DNA of 64,000 nt from Minisyncoccota bacterium (lineage in GTDB: Bacteria > Patescibacteriota > Minisyncoccia > UBA6257 > 2-01-FULL-56-20), in the NCBI GenBank assembly GCA_035509435.1, contig DATJLR010000002.1, positions 330,338-394,337 on the forward strand. Direction: 5' to 3'. A program made the translations under genes and the position numbers. This document shows positions 5,329 through 31,516 of the stretch, piece by piece (the first letter of the stretch is position 1; every line of letters begins with the position of its first letter). The notes below the pieces were generated by a model, which made no database searches, was not told the DNA's origin, and saw only the letters and a program-made list of their open reading frames with translations.

Positions 5329-6093
5329 TCACTTTTTCTTCACCATTATATCAGAAAAATTATCCATCTGCTCCAGGAGGACGAGCTGCTCGCGCGCGAG
5401 GTGGAGTATCGCGAGGAAGACCACGATCATCTCGCCCCGCGATTTTTCGCCGGACAGGTTGCCGAAGCGCATATCCCCTTCTTTTTGGATGCGGCCGAGC
5501 ACTTCGCTGATCTTTTCCTCGAGCGTGACAATCTTCTCCCGGATGGTCTCCGTCTCCAGATCATACGTTTTGATGGAGTCAAATATACTGCCCAATGCCG
5601 CGGCGAGCGCCTCGGTGTCCAGGTTGGCGCCGGGATAGAACATCGTCTGGCCCGGGATGTTGCCCGTGCCGCGGCCGAGGAAGTATGGCCGGCTGAACGA
5701 GTGGTGGCTCGTTTGCCAGAGCCGGTTGATCAGCTTGATCGCGGGTTTGAGCTGTTGATAGATATGCAGGCGCGCCTCGAGGTCTTTGATGTCTGCTTCC
5801 TCCTCTTCGGTCAGCGCGAGGCCCGGCAATAAATACTTCGACTTCAGAAATATCAATTTGCTCGCGACGGAAACAAAGTCCGCGAGAACGCGCAGGTCGC
5901 CCCGGAATTTGACCTCCGCCTCCGCAGCGGCATCGCCGCTCAGCCCGCTTTTGAACGTCTCCAGGTATTTCAAAAAATCGTCCGTGACCTTGGCCAAACT
6001 GACCTCGCTCACGTCCATCTTCTCCGCCTCTATGAGCTCCAGCAACTTCTCGAGCGGCCCGCTGAACTCCCCTACGCGCGTTTCATATTCCAT
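5329..6093 (-). CDS. scpA: Segregation and condensation protein A (kleisin)
   Basis: N-terminal FSGPLEKLLELIE motif typical of ScpA; scpA-scpB pair. Confidence 0.85.
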   Translation of the reverse strand: MEYETRVGEFSGPLEKLLELIEAEKMDVSEVSLAKVTDDFLKYLETFKSGLSGDAAAEAEVKFRGDLRVLADFVSVASKLIFLKSKYLLPGLALTEEEEADIKDLEARLHIYQQLKPAIKLINRLWQTSHHSFSRPYFLGRGTGNIPGQTMFYPGANLDTEALAAALGSIFDSIKTYDLETETIREKIVTLEEKISEVLGRIQKEGDMRFGNLSGEKSRGEMIVVFLAILHLAREQLVLLEQMDNFSDIMVKKK

Positions 6094-6165
6094 GGGATCA
6101 ATATTCTGATGATAGAAGAAACGGATAGAAGAATCAATTTAAGATGTTTTTAATGACGAGTATGT

Positions 6166-6558
6166 ATGCTGCTATGGATGCAAAAAGATTTCGACCGCTG
6201 GAATGCTCAAAAATCAAAACTGAACAACGAGATTACCACTCAGTTGTTTAAAGAACGCGAGATCTGGTTCTGTTACCTAGGATTGAATATCGGGCACGAG
6301 CAGGATGGAGGTGTAAAAACTTTTCTCCGGCCAGTGATCGTTTTAAAGAAAATTTCTAACGAAATGTTTTTTGGTATCCCTCTCACGCGTACGCCAAGAT
6401 TTGGAAAAGAATATTTTACGATAATCAACAATCACGGCGTTGGGTTTGCCATGCTCTCGCAGGGGCGCACATTGGACGCCCGACGTATTAAATATTGTTC
6501 GGCGATTATACCAGAAGATGAATTCGAATCACTCAAGCTTTGTTTCCTTTTATTTTAA
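6166..6558 (+). CDS. PemK/MazF-family toxin-like protein (mRNA interferase fold), no adjacent antitoxin
   Basis: Core REIWFCYLGLNIGHEQDGGVKTFLRPVIVLKK matches the MazF/PemK signature (GDIYxADLxPxxGSEQxGxRPVLV); low-GC segment. Confidence 0.7.
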   Translation: MLLWMQKDFDRWNAQKSKLNNEITTQLFKEREIWFCYLGLNIGHEQDGGVKTFLRPVIVLKKISNEMFFGIPLTRTPRFGKEYFTIINNHGVGFAMLSQGRTLDARRIKYCSAIIPEDEFESLKLCFLLF

Positions 6559-6699
6559 GTATTCTATAAAAACGTTACTCCCGCCCGGTCTGCGCGCCAG
6601 ACATCTATGGGACGGGAGAGCAATAGGACTTTTTCAGTCCTGCTATTAGAATAAATTTCTTGTGCGCAAAGTCAAATGAAATTTAATGATATTTTAATA

Positions 6700-7130
6700 A
6701 ATTTATTACCCTAAAATTAGAAAGGCCCGCTCACGGGTGAGACGGGCCGAAGGGCAACTGAGAACTGGACTCAGAAGGTGCATTTCAAATGCACTGATAC
6801 CCTGGGAAGAAAGCTCCCTCGACCGAATTATCGGCGCTCGGGAACTTACAATCGCGGTTTCCAGCAACCGCGAAGGATTACGTGCTCCTATGGGAGCGAA
6901 GGACCAATGGTCCGGTAAAAAAAGAACTGTTGTCGGGTCATGCAACCGCCTGCACGAACCCGACCATTATAACACGCATATTGCCAGCCGATGGCAGTCT
7001 CGACTGACGCACCCCTGTTCTTCCCCCGCAGACCGAGGAACGCCTTTTGGGAGTCCGGATTAGCTCAGCTACTGCGTTTCCACAGTAAGGTGTCAGGGTC
7101 AATCCGGATCAAGCACCCTAACTCAGGACA
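6700..7130 (-). ncRNA. Candidate structured ncRNA (~420 nt) with its own promoter and intrinsic terminator; class unresolved (SRP RNA, RNase P RNA or other)
   Basis: GC-rich, hairpin-dense, no protein-like ORF on either strand; minus-strand -35 TTGACA/16 nt/-10 TATACT at ~7157-7130; minus-strand terminator hairpin GGCCCGUCUCACCCGUGAGCGGGCC plus UUUCUAAUUUU at 6752-6705. Confidence 0.45.
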
Positions 7131-7190
7131 GTATAGCATATCCATAAATCCTGTCAAGCCCCTGTCAATGCCTAATTTCCAGCGTATAAT
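7130..7190. promoter_or_regulatory. Divergent overlapping sigma70-like promoters: minus-strand promoter for the ncRNA candidate and plus-strand CTGTCA/16 nt/TATAAT placing the TSS at or next to the dnaX ATG (leaderless dnaX)
   Basis: Hexamers read from sequence; TATAAT ends 8 nt before the dnaX ATG at 7199. Confidence 0.4.
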
Positions 7191-7198
7191 AGCAATAC

Positions 7199-8308
7199 AT
7201 GGCACAAGCGCTCTATCGAAAATACCGGCCGCAAAAATTGGACGATGTCCTCGGCCAGGAGACGAACGTCGAGATCCTTAAGAATGCCGCGAAGGCGGGG
7301 CGGCTGGGGCAGGCTTACATCTTTTATGGCGCGCGCGGGACAGGTAAGACGACGACGGCACGGTTGATCGCAAAATTGCTCAACTGCGAAAAACGTCGCA
7401 CCGATCCGAAGTTCGCCGCGCTCGGCGAGCCGTGCAACGAATGCCGCGAGTGCCTGGCGATCGACGCGCAGAACTCGTTCGATGTCGTGGAAATCGACGC
7501 TGCGTCCAATCGCGGCATCGACGAGATCCGCAACCTTAAGGAAAACATCCGCACGTCGCCCGCGAGCGCCGAGCACAAGGTCTACATTATAGACGAAGCA
7601 CACATGCTGACCGGCGCGGCGTTCAACGCCCTGCTCAAAACGCTCGAAGAACCGCCCAAGCACGCGGTGATCATTCTCGCGACGACGGAATTTGAAAAGT
7701 TGCCGCCGACGATTACTTCGCGCGCCCAGCGGTTCGTGTTCAAGAAACTGTCCAAGGCGACGATCATCGAAAAGCTCACCGACATCGCAAAGAAGGAAAA
7801 GATAAAGATCGATGACGCGGCGATCGAGCTCATCGCCGCCGCCGCGGAAGGAAGCTTCCGCGACGCGGAGTCGTTGCTCGACCAGATCTCATCGCTCGCG
7901 AGCGCGAAGGGCATCTCCCTTGCCGACGCCGAGCGCGTCACCGGCCGCACCGGCCTCAAGAAGGTCCACGAGATGGCGCAGTTCATCGTCGCGCGCGATG
8001 TAAAAGGGGCGCTTGGCTACCTGAACGAGCTGAACGAGGATGGCCACAACCTGGTGCAGTTCGCCAAAGACCTCATCCATTATCTGCGCAAAGTGCTGTC
8101 GCTCAAGATCAATCCGTCGCTCAAGGCGGTGATGGAACGCGACCTCACGCGTGACGAGGTCGCCGCCGCGATCGCGCTCGGCGCGGACGCCGATGCCGCC
8201 GCGCTTGTGAAGTTCGAGAAGGCGCTCATCCGCGCGTACGCGGAGATGCGCTACTCCCCTTTTGCCATCGTCCCGCTCGAAGTGGCGCTCGTGGAACAGC
8301 TCTCGTAG
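7199..8308 (+). CDS. dnaX: DNA polymerase III subunit gamma/tau, short gamma-only form (369 aa)
   Basis: YRPQKLDDVLGQE, Walker A GARGTGKTT, DEAH-like IIDEAHML and the clamp-loader box. Confidence 0.9.
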   Translation: MAQALYRKYRPQKLDDVLGQETNVEILKNAAKAGRLGQAYIFYGARGTGKTTTARLIAKLLNCEKRRTDPKFAALGEPCNECRECLAIDAQNSFDVVEIDAASNRGIDEIRNLKENIRTSPASAEHKVYIIDEAHMLTGAAFNALLKTLEEPPKHAVIILATTEFEKLPPTITSRAQRFVFKKLSKATIIEKLTDIAKKEKIKIDDAAIELIAAAAEGSFRDAESLLDQISSLASAKGISLADAERVTGRTGLKKVHEMAQFIVARDVKGALGYLNELNEDGHNLVQFAKDLIHYLRKVLSLKINPSLKAVMERDLTRDEVAAAIALGADADAAALVKFEKALIRAYAEMRYSPFAIVPLEVALVEQLS

Positions 8309-8354: not shown

Positions 8355-8426
8355 TGCCGGATCATCTAATGGTAGGATAGTGGACTCTGAATCCATTCAT
8401 CTTGGTTCGAATCCAAGTCCGGCAGC
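8355..8426 (+). tRNA. tRNA-Gln (anticodon CTG)
   Basis: Acceptor TGCCGGA/TCCGGCA, anticodon stem TGGA/TCCA with loop CT-CTG-AA, T-loop GGTTCGAATCC; CCA not encoded. Confidence 0.8.
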
Positions 8427-30041: not shown

Positions 30042-31516
30042 TTTTGCTTTATTCCCGGCTTGAAATAGACCGGATGCTCATATTCCCAAAAGACGATGCG
30101 CGGAGTGACCTTTCGCGGCATGGAATTATAATTGTTGTGGTATTCGGCATTGTGCTCCATAAGCGAACGCACAATGCTGCTTGATACCTGCCGTTTTAGC
30201 GTTGCGGTCTGCCTGACCCGCGGCCGCGTTTCGACGTTCACTTCAAGGTATTCGTCGTGGGAATCATCGAATTTCGTGGCCATGGTGAACCGCCCCGTGA
30301 CCGACCGCTGCAGTGAACGATGCTCCAATCCTTCTTTGATATGTTCGGGATAAATGATCGCGCCGTACAACTTGGTCGAAAAATCGCTCCTTTCAAAGAT
30401 ATAGACGAACGGAAGGTCGGAAAAGTCGGCTTTTATGGCACGCTCCTCTTTTTTTATGTCGATCGCATGGAGCGCAAGCGTCCTTCTTACCTGGTCGGCC
30501 GAAAAAACGCCGCCGTGGTCGCCGATCGCATATCGTATGAGCGGAATGGTGTTATCGCCGGTCAGGGCTATTTCTCCGTTGACTGCTTCGAAATTGATGA
30601 AGAGCGGGTTATATTGAGCAAGGGTCGGTGTCATTTCGATCTCCGAAAAAAGATCACTGAACAAGCGCGTGTCCGCGCTGGCGCGCTGGCGCGTAAAGAT
30701 GCTGAAAGGGCTTTCAAAGGCCATTGCCCCAAGGTCGGCGCTTCCATAGATGTTGAGTGTGTCGCGGCACAGGTCTTTTATTCCCGCCAATTCAGCCACA
30801 TGCCTCCGGAATGTCTCTGTAAACGCTTCCGCCGCAAAAAATAGCCTGAGATTCATTTTTTTTATATTGATACCGCGCGCAGCCGCCTCTTCGAGGACAT
30901 CCTTCACGAACGGAGGATATCCGATGAGAATGGTCTGTTTGAAGTGCGGCGCGAGCGATGTAAACGCGTTGAAGATCTCCTGCTTGTTGATGCCCGGCGT
31001 AAGTATTGAAATATGCTGTCCGAGCCGCTTGCCCGCGATCTCGAACGCCTTGTAAGTGATCAGTCCGCCGATCCAGACGCCCATGCCAAAACCGACGATC
31101 ACAAGAGTCGGACCGTCCCCGTAACTGCTATTTTGTAAGAACGTTTCCGCGATAACGGAATACTGCGCGTCGAGCGTTTCGGTACGGGGGAAATAAAACG
31201 GTTCCCCGGTGGAACCGGATGTGGATGTCCATACTGTCGCGCCGCTTTTGAACGTCCCGTTCCACAACAATCTTTCGAGCGGGTACTGGCGCAGGTAGTT
31301 CTTTTTATTGGTCAGCGGCACCTTTTGGAGGTTCGCGAAGGTCTTTATCGCCCCCGGCACGATACGGTTTTTTTTAAGGAAATCCTTGTATGCGGGTATC
31401 CCGCGCGCGGCGCGATGAAACAGCGCCAGCGTGCGGCGCTCCTGCTCTTTTTTCCAAAAAGCGGACCGTTTTATTTTAAGTATGTTCAATATCCGTCCGG
31501 CCTCTTTGTCATCCAT
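30023..31516 (-). CDS. Phenylacetate-CoA ligase / coenzyme F390 synthetase-like adenylate-forming enzyme (PaaK/CapK family)
   Basis: AMP-binding P-loop-like WTSTSGSTGEPFYFP and overall PaaK-like length (497 aa); overlaps the ThiF-like gene by 19 nt. Confidence 0.75.
   Translation of the reverse strand: MDDKEAGRILNILKIKRSAFWKKEQERRTLALFHRAARGIPAYKDFLKKNRIVPGAIKTFANLQKVPLTNKKNYLRQYPLERLLWNGTFKSGATVWTSTSGSTGEPFYFPRTETLDAQYSVIAETFLQNSSYGDGPTLVIVGFGMGVWIGGLITYKAFEIAGKRLGQHISILTPGINKQEIFNAFTSLAPHFKQTILIGYPPFVKDVLEEAAARGINIKKMNLRLFFAAEAFTETFRRHVAELAGIKDLCRDTLNIYGSADLGAMAFESPFSIFTRQRASADTRLFSDLFSEIEMTPTLAQYNPLFINFEAVNGEIALTGDNTIPLIRYAIGDHGGVFSADQVRRTLALHAIDIKKEERAIKADFSDLPFVYIFERSDFSTKLYGAIIYPEHIKEGLEHRSLQRSVTGRFTMATKFDDSHDEYLEVNVETRPRVRQTATLKRQVSSSIVRSLMEHNAEYHNNYNSMPRKVTPRIVFWEYEHPVYFKPGIKQKWVVKK

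Follow-up and report, generated by a model that had tools for sequence, protein, structure and literature searches.

A MazF-fold toxin gene with a predicted convergent small RNA in a Minisyncoccota bacterium and its relatives across the candidate phyla radiation

We analyzed a stretch of 64 000 nt from a Minisyncoccota bacterium (contig DATJLR010000002.1, positions 330 338 to 394 337), hereafter called the window, whose coordinates are used throughout. Between scpA (5329–6093, minus strand) and dnaX (7199–8308, plus strand) it carries a gene for a MazF/PemK-fold protein that is followed by two hairpins. A preliminary description of the locus had called this gene a solitary, orphan toxin. Both words are misnomers, as we found the toxin gene to be accompanied by a predicted small RNA gene that comprises the hairpins, lies on the minus strand and runs towards the toxin gene. 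The toxin gene lies at 6178–6558 on the plus strand, ends with a TAA stop codon at 6556–6558 and, counted from MQKDF, the consensus start of the family, encodes 126 aa. Within the longest open reading frame (ORF; 6166–6558 on the plus strand, 130 aa) this start is M5; because the upstream ATG is missing in relatives, we take MQKDF at 6178, which is also the NCBI call, as the real start. NCBI lists the 126-aa version in a Candidatus Paceibacterota metagenome-assembled genome (MAG) under the name ‘type II toxin-antitoxin system PemK/MazF family toxin’, and all databases label the protein ‘type II PemK/MazF family toxin’. The gene is single-copy within the window.

The sole Pfam match of the protein was PemK_toxin (PF02452; E = 4e-5), which exceeded the gathering score by a narrow margin (24.2 versus 23.1 bits). 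PHROG 9567 (‘MazF-like growth inhibitor’) matched at E = 5.5e-14, scans of the toxin against NCBIfam and PADLOC gave no match, and the profile of the toxin family matched Bacillus subtilis MazF at E = 1e-4. An AlphaFold (AF2) model built on 27 relatives reached a predicted local distance difference test value (pLDDT) of 83, and the best 50 Foldseek matches in the PDB were all MazF proteins with template modeling (TM) scores of 0.55–0.79 (from Staphylococcus aureus, B. subtilis, Mycobacterium tuberculosis and Escherichia coli). Ahead of the MazF barrel the model contains an extra N-terminal helix (residues 2–20). All family members have such a helix in front of the barrel, and D, F and W residues in it are conserved; it is family-specific and basic (mean charge +2.8 over 22 aa). 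In the numbering of the 130-aa version, R55 aligns with the Arg of ‘VRPVLV’ and T74 with the Thr of ‘AAITAQ’ in B. subtilis MazF (4MDX); their counterparts (R25/T48 in BsMazF, R29/T52 in EcMazF) are the catalytic Arg and Thr/Ser of MazF. Across 27 sequences R55, P56, E45 and Q99 are invariant and T74 is at least 90% conserved. Since the catalytic Arg and Thr are kept, the window protein is no obvious pseudo-toxin. Its initial assignment as a MazF/PemK-like toxin is thus upheld by the Pfam score, the fold of the model and both catalytic residues, and the proposed alignment check for their loss came out in its favor, with R55 invariant and T74 near-invariant.

MazF is the textbook type II toxin and is neutralized by a protein. 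In both flanks of the window gene, including the 72–84 nt upstream, the ORFs of at least 20 aa were all spurious, non-conserved and without a Pfam match. The intergenic region between scpA and the toxin gene (6094–6177) contains no antitoxin ORF, and the upstream regions are not conserved across the family. Clustering of 1472 flanking ORFs at 165 loci (individual loci are given as L numbers) revealed no shared neighbor family beyond the scpA synteny of the window clade (16 loci), and two clusters of neighboring ‘ORFs’ were translations of conserved non-coding sequence directly after the stop codon. The earlier observation that no antitoxin ORF is present therefore holds for the window, with no credible candidate in either flank, and none is conserved beside the 165 loci: the adjoining, co-transcribed protein antitoxin of type II MazEF/PemIK systems (MazE/PemI, AbrB or ribbon-helix-helix fold) is missing. 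A 110-aa ORF upstream of P0031 was rejected as an antitoxin, as Pfam identifies a DUF4190-type membrane protein; a 131-aa ORF in L001, considered as a candidate, had no Pfam match, and inspection of loci without the RNA motif described below yielded no antitoxin either. One might suppose that the N-terminal helix is a built-in antitoxin that acts in cis like the MazE C-terminus, and its conserved D, F and W residues before the barrel in all members would suit such a role. The helix is, however, net basic, whereas MazE tails are acidic, and the co-inherited RNA would be left unexplained, so that we consider this reading, which is drawn from the model, extremely unlikely.

The two hairpins reported downstream of the gene were recovered, the nested one at 6578–6618 (inner stem 6588–6602) and the second at 6625–6641. 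Their predicted folding energy is −30 to −31 kcal/mol (z-scores −2.8 and −3.7), with little difference between the strands. On the minus strand we predict from them a small RNA of ~78 nt (6566–6644) with a transcription start site (TSS) at ~6641–6644 and a 3′ end at ~6566, 8 nt from the toxin stop codon. Its promoter consists of a −35 hexamer TTGACT (6670–6675), of which TTGAC is invariant in the clade alignment and matches the family-wide logo, and, after a 16-nt spacer, a −10 hexamer TATTCT (6648–6653; TATCCT in relatives). Upstream of the −35 hexamer an AT-rich tract, AAATTTAATGATnTTTTAATAAA (6676–6712), is UP-element-like and has invariant columns; its 11-nt periodicity was detected by Tandem Repeats Finder (TRF), which reported no tandem repeats at the locus except this AT-rich 11-mer (6675–6705). 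The predicted RNA begins with hairpin P0 (AGGACU-GAAAA-AGUCCU, 6625–6641, minus strand), which shows compensatory changes at three pairs in the clade. Hairpin P2 (6578–6618, minus strand) follows; here 6618–6610 pairs with 6586–6578 over 9 bp, and the hairpin matches P2 of the family-wide RNA. Within P2 lie an internal loop CAUAGAU (6609–6603) and a nested hairpin P2a (6602–6598 paired with 6592–6588), the latter being the inner stem of the ‘nested GC hairpin’ described previously. The 3′ tail UAACGUUUUUAU (6566–6577, minus strand; conserved as GUAAC-U(3–7)) is the probable termination site. That the hairpins have no U-tail is accordingly correct for the plus strand and incorrect for the minus strand, where the nested hairpin is followed by UAACGUUUUUAU. 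A simple terminator scan of 5900–7400 found no terminator.

From the −35 hexamer to the U-tail the window is 94–96% identical to L003 and L095 (an alignment-based value, with the stop codon shifted by 6 nt). As this identity persists despite saturated synonymous sites in the adjoining ORF, the non-coding RNA stretch is under strong constraint. The layout of the clade comprises a promoter with TTGAC(T), 16–17 nt and TAT(C/T)CT, followed by P0, P1 with a UUCG loop, P2, and GUAAC with a U-run; P2 bears a conserved internal loop C(A/G)(U/C)AGAU plus the nested hairpin. P1 is present in L004, L013 and among L094–L101 (L095 being without it), the motif ACAAAU is missing in the window clade, and L100, L101 and L015 bridge the RNA of the clade to the general form found elsewhere in the candidate phyla radiation (CPR).

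Searching 1.8 billion representative proteins with the profile of the toxin family, we obtained 2827 clusters (at 50% identity) with E ≤ 1e-3, of which 1798 had E ≤ 1e-10; most of the proteins have ~130 aa and matched over their full length. Encoding stretches numbered 176 in a scan of one genome per species and more than 388 in JGI metagenomes, and the named records are nearly all Patescibacteria. We compared the 140 nt after each toxin stop codon across loci and observed the following succession on the plus strand: a hairpin at the ORF end that includes the stop, a T-tract, a variable hairpin, (T/A)CGGGCCGAAGCC, ATTTGTA, TATAGCA and GTCAA. At 127 of 146 distinct loci (110 exact) the decamer GGCCGAAGCC (up to 2 substitutions allowed) is located 23–73 nt past the stop, whereas only 4 of 145 control windows contain it; several of the 19 loci without it carry variants or have an ORF call that extends through the element. 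On the minus strand the CPR promoter reads TTGAC(T/A), a spacer of ~17 nt and TGnTAnnnT, with ~6 nt to the RNA start. The 5′ part of the RNA consists of ACAAAU, P1 (GGC-UUCG-GCC), C(GA/U)C and a P2 of 4–8 bp closed by GNRA, and the 3′ part of G(U/A)AAAA with an A-rich linker, P3 (the hairpin at the ORF end) and a U-tract. In a logo anchored at P1 the T, A and T of the −10 reach frequencies of 0.81, 0.83 and 0.86, and two bases further upstream there is a TG; because of this logo we placed the RNA start at the A of ACAAAU. The extended −10 and the −35 lie at a fixed distance, and a promoter scanner independently detected the site in L146 and L020.

A covariance model built from 31 sequences (R1) gave scores of up to 101 bits and 89 minus-strand matches at E < 1e-7 in 100 loci, all adjoining the ORF. 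When applied to an unbiased set of 80 species genomes, it matched ~60 at E < 1e-6; weaker variants are present in roughly a dozen others. Extra strong matches always occurred after a second MazF-like paralogue at the same locus (L045, L022, L030, L051); with each paralogue having its own RNA copy, protein and RNA form a 1:1 pair. In the R1-fitted alignment, which is biased towards the structure, 97.4% of cells are paired, double changes occur at 20 of 23 pairs, and the covariation score is 0.466 versus 0.168 for shuffles (reached by none of 500) and at most 0.112 with slid partners, a large margin. Searches of Rfam at the E-value threshold with the window region, the whole window, 10 CPR loci and 5 Campylobacterota loci returned no family over the small RNA, and we found no description of a MazF-linked small RNA in the CPR in a literature search.

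In the preliminary description the hairpins had been treated as plus-strand elements of the toxin transcript. They would then be 3′ untranslated region (3′-UTR) or terminator elements of a true orphan toxin, in keeping with the similar folding of both strands in the window and with a toxin mRNA that probably runs through the region, where no terminator was detected. A test of strandedness that is independent of the alignment bias gave a different picture. On the minus strand we counted 109 G.U versus 11 A.C cells across the family. Of 89 sequences, 85 have a UUCG loop on P1 and 70 a GNRA loop on P2, and these stable tetraloops exist on the minus strand only. The sole imperfect pair of P2 in the window is likewise a U.G on the minus strand and an A.C mismatch on the plus strand. 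In addition, the conserved promoter faces the opposite way, and the same position in the Campylobacter jejuni plasmid pVir yields a minus-strand RNA of 77 nt (PMC3656092). The plus-strand assignment is therefore not sustained, and we regard a role of the hairpins in an orphan toxin transcript as very unlikely. The position of the promoter, the UUCG and GNRA loops and the G.U/A.C asymmetry instead indicate a functional RNA on the minus strand.

Several further observations were made at the CPR loci. In L146 (426–508), L020 (3363–3440) and most others, the last ~7 codons of the ORF (...LK-x-LLP*) together with the stop form a hairpin stem. This ORF-end hairpin is flanked by an A-tract and a T-tract and has the shape of a bidirectional terminator for the mRNA and the convergent RNA; terminator scans miss it, probably because the A- and T-tracts pair together. 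At about 10 loci (L022, L030, L045, L051, L162, L125, L137, L154, L165 and L073) a pair of MazF-like genes lies within 3 kb, and each gene of the pair has a small RNA of its own after it. An extra P1-P2 unit is present in L107 (3339–3480) and L083 (3466–3530). Such multiplicity of gene and RNA is typical of toxin-antitoxin (TA) or defence modules. Two family loci with the small RNA, L026 and L059, belong to MAGs whose labels are Gammaproteobacteria and Alphaproteobacteria, and either mis-binning or transfer outside the CPR is possible.

Outside the CPR, tblastn against annotated collections found full-length relatives (33–37% identity) only on 33 Campylobacterota plasmids, from Campylobacter, Helicobacter and Nitratiruptor, and in 7 prophages of the Campylobacter CJIE4 type. 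The homologue on pVir of C. jejuni 81-176 is pVir0047, a 405-nt gene at 30634–31038. BLASTP aligned it to the window toxin at E = 9e-17 with 32% identity over 114 aa, spanning the N-terminal FD-x-WN-x-x-K motif, RPV and PL(T/S). It is the only toxin-like gene annotated on pVir and is without an adjoining antitoxin. Downstream of pVir0047 and the other Campylobacterota genes we observed a minus-strand extended −10 promoter and then two or three hairpins, the last of which has the form CCC(C/U)G...C(G/A)GGG followed by (A/G)AUA and adjoins the stop. Differential RNA sequencing (dRNA-seq) by Dugar et al. 2013 (PMC3656092) placed a minus-strand TSS antisense to CJJ81176_pVir0047 at 31119 with a step height of 16164, as compared with 28 for the gene's own TSS at 30608; the sequence upstream of TSS 31119 ends ...TGATATAATAATTCCG. 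The corresponding small RNA, CJpv3 (31119–31043, 77 nt), was Northern-positive (PMC3656092, Tables S5 and S12). In the pVir homologue the convergent RNA is thus real and abundant, is of equal size and has its 3′ end 5 nt away from the stop codon. CjrA is described as the antisense RNA antitoxin of a type I TA system, cjrA/cjpT, on pVir of strain 81-176 (PMC10470494, PMC7826846). As a side observation, the internal loop of P2 in the window (CCCGUCCCAUAGAUG, 6609–6603) resembles the loop of the last hairpin of CJpv3 (CCCCGUCAUAGAG; L171 2899–2906), by common descent or by chance.

The base composition of the toxin ORF is conspicuous. Its GC content is 40.9%, compared to 56.7% in the left flank, 60.5% in dnaX and 54.5% in the whole window, which agrees with the low-GC patch reported earlier. 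Acquisition had been suggested as the cause. In all the relatives that we checked, even distant ones whose genomes are AT-rich, the GC content of the ORF is 6–19 points lower than that of the flanking DNA; low GC characterizes the entire family and is not a sign of recent transfer. Relatives with 67–82% identical proteins, on metagenome contigs, share the gene order mraY, S11 peptidase (penicillin-binding protein, PBP), scpB, scpA, toxin gene, dnaX. Compared with these relatives, dN/dS of the toxin ORF is 0.06–0.13, with dS at ~1 or saturated. Synteny, dN/dS and the family-wide low GC led us to reject recent horizontal acquisition, and the proposed acquisition is not supported, given the conserved synteny at saturated synonymous sites and an ORF that is AT-richer than its flanks in every relative examined; in the Paceibacterota clade of the window the module between scpA and dnaX is inherited vertically. 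The same evidence, a scpA-dnaX synteny kept across saturated synonymous divergence under strong purifying selection, would be expected if the protein had become a domesticated nuclease in this clade, that is, a housekeeping RNase or RNA-binding protein with the RNA as substrate, cofactor or unrelated neighbor. The single copy in 64 kb and the absence of relatives among IMG/VR viral contigs fit as well; the latter also led us to reject a phage origin in the CPR. Elsewhere, however, the gene occurs in many different contexts, with no neighbor family in more than 16 of 165 loci, tandem paralogous modules occur, and the Campylobacterota copies reside on plasmids and in prophages. Varied contexts, tandem copies and plasmid or prophage location are typical of TA or defence modules, and we consider domestication improbable.

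Taken together, we think it reasonably probable that the locus is a two-gene module of a MazF-fold toxin and an RNA antitoxin, with the window copy being a derived one. The earlier suggestion that the toxin may pair with an RNA antitoxin has thereby gained strong comparative support. The toxin would be the predicted MazF-fold endoribonuclease with its family-specific basic N-terminal helix. The small RNA (~78 nt), convergent and highly structured, would be transcribed from its own sigma-70-type promoter, end a few bases from the toxin stop and replace the missing protein antitoxin; it would be expected in large excess. Neutralization could proceed in a type I-like manner, as reported for cjrA/cjpT of pVir, by an antisense interaction with the toxin mRNA at its 3′ end or 3′ UTR, or additionally by binding of the RNA to the toxin protein. 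In most CPR members the terminal hairpin, together with its A- and U-tracts, appears to belong to both the RNA and the mRNA, a 3′ overlap predicted from the geometry, and in the window clade the toxin mRNA, having no detectable terminator, would read through the whole RNA gene.

Several points weigh against this two-gene module. The long-stable synteny in the window clade is unusual for a selfish TA module, and the terminator scan misses the shared hairpin. The window and the three relatives closest to it (L003, L092/093, L095) lost P1 through an 11-nt deletion, and R1 gave no match to the window at E ≤ 1. The assignment of the window RNA therefore rests on the graded series within its clade, in which the intermediates L004, L012 and L013 score 23–24 bits. 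Judged by the features of the R1 class, the window has neither the 5′ ACAAAU nor P1 GGC-UUCG-GCC, and does have P2, the G/UAA(C) tail, the minus-strand promoter and the position directly after the ORF; its RNA thus appears to be a derived member, in which the otherwise near-invariant hairpin with the UUCG loop was lost, a 5′ hairpin was added and P2 acquired an insert. Nor did R1 match pVir. Since it matches neither the window nor pVir, the homology of the RNAs rests on position, orientation and architecture. Toxicity, antitoxin activity and neutralization mode in the CPR are inferred, as is the identity, in our view highly probable, of cjpT with pVir0047 and of cjrA with CJpv3. Finally, the most conserved part of the RNA (5′ ACAAAU-P1-P2) is not complementary to the toxin mRNA. 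Cognate and non-cognate duplex energies did not differ for the start region (−14.95 versus −15.30, P = 0.14; no specific pairing) or for pairing with the ORF body (P = 0.17), and pairing in the style of Fst/RNA II was rejected because cognate energies are no different from non-cognate ones.

A purely antisense mode leaves the conservation of ACAAAU-P1-P2 unexplained, as this domain is non-complementary. In a type III-like alternative the structured 5′ domain would bind the MazF-like protein, perhaps through the basic helix and the active-site groove, and give an inactive ribonucleoprotein; single-stranded ACAAAU might mimic the substrate, and the 3′ overlap would be secondary. The near-invariance of P1 and its flanks across lineages whose proteins are only ~40% identical, the lack of complementarity and of detected cognate pairing just mentioned, and the basic charge of the family-specific helix all speak for it, and ToxN-type type III toxins have a Kid/MazF-like fold. 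On the other hand, there is neither a tandem-repeat antitoxin nor co-transcription as in ToxIN, the window clade has no ACAAAU and the window no P1 although the protein is under purifying selection, and the Campylobacter relative is described as type I in the literature. We consider this alternative, which is compatible with the favored module of toxin and RNA antitoxin, rather unlikely. Only tentatively do we entertain the possibility that the UUCG/GNRA-hairpin domain is a dedicated protein-binding antitoxin of a MazF nuclease, which would make the family a hybrid type I/III class.

Among known systems, pVir0047/CJpv3 (by our inference cjpT/cjrA) is alike in having a toxin that is homologous over its full length, including FD-x-WN-x-x-K, RPV and PL(T/S), in having no protein antitoxin, in a convergent RNA of ~77–78 nt (in the window predicted only) with its own strong promoter that ends 5–8 nt from the stop, and in two to three hairpins, the last being CCCCG...CGGGG followed by AUAA/UAAC. 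It differs in a protein identity of only 32–37%, in RNAs without detectable sequence homology and in its location on Campylobacterota plasmids and prophages rather than a CPR chromosome. The toxins of MazEF/PemIK (Kis-Kid) have this fold as well, and likewise the catalytic Arg and Thr and a C-terminal helix. The window toxin and its relatives, in contrast, have a predicted RNA partner instead of an adjoining MazE/PemI, and in the window toxin a basic helix is added at the N-terminus and the loop after GxEQ is longer by a 5-residue insert. The par system of pAD1 (Fst/RNA II) and B. subtilis txpA/RatA and bsrG/SR4 likewise combine a convergent toxin mRNA and small RNA that overlap at their 3′ ends and share a bidirectional terminator, as most CPR members apparently share one end hairpin. 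However, the window toxin is a soluble 126-aa MazF-fold protein and not a small hydrophobic membrane peptide as in classical type I systems, no pairing with the translation start was detected, and the CPR RNA has a conserved, non-complementary structured domain. With type III systems (ToxIN, CptIN, TenpIN) the module shares an endoribonuclease toxin of Kid/MazF-like fold countered by a structured RNA (both predicted here). Unlike these, the window toxin does not belong to the ToxN/AbiQ family (no PADLOC match), and its RNA is single-copy and convergent with its own promoter, without an upstream tandem-repeat array in the same transcript.

The window gene is therefore best filed as a new, derived member of the kind of MazF-like toxin with convergent small RNA that pVir0047/CJpv3, probably cjpT/cjrA, represents. 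As far as the literature shows, new aspects are the size of the family and its CPR-wide spread, the covarying UUCG/GNRA RNA class, the stop codon inside the shared hairpin, and the fact that all the proteins are annotated as type II toxins. The subfamily is mostly found in Patescibacteria, is almost always without a protein antitoxin and carries a structured, promoter-equipped RNA absent from Rfam. For this clade the label ‘type II toxin-antitoxin system PemK/MazF family toxin’ is systematically misleading, and ‘orphan toxin’ calls in the CPR need re-examination. Our findings also tie a single, little-noticed experimental system (cjrA/cjpT, CJpv3 on pVir) to a large uncultivated radiation, and the ~90 covarying RNA sequences are a resource for distinguishing type I from type III neutralization of a MazF enzyme. 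If the RNA does bind the protein, thousands of ‘type II MazF toxins’ would in fact be RNA-controlled.

Between the small RNA gene and dnaX we noticed a second candidate structured RNA of ~410 nt (6713–7123, minus strand). Its near-consensus promoter (7157–7130; TTGACA-16-TG-n-TATACT, 11 of 12 matches) is divergent from that of dnaX, a terminator hairpin at 6748–6724 is followed by a U-tail, and the minimum free energy (MFE) z-score is −5.2. L005 and L097 have conserved the promoter and a number of blocks, and their terminator shows compensatory changes. The candidate had no Rfam match, no transfer-messenger RNA (tmRNA) call by ARAGORN and no coding potential; identification as signal recognition particle (SRP) RNA, RNase P RNA, tmRNA or a pseudogene of the L001 ORF was in no case supported. 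In L001 (4578–4973) and L004 (4583–4966, both on the minus strand) an unrelated ORF of 127–131 aa, without a Pfam match or similarity to the window, fills this slot, and for this reason the segment between the module and dnaX is variable. Another variable spot follows dnaX: the window carries tRNA-Gln(CTG) there (8355–8426), and relatives have either a LAGLIDADG-type ORF (L004, 6386–6997) or a serine recombinase (L001, 7220–8260).

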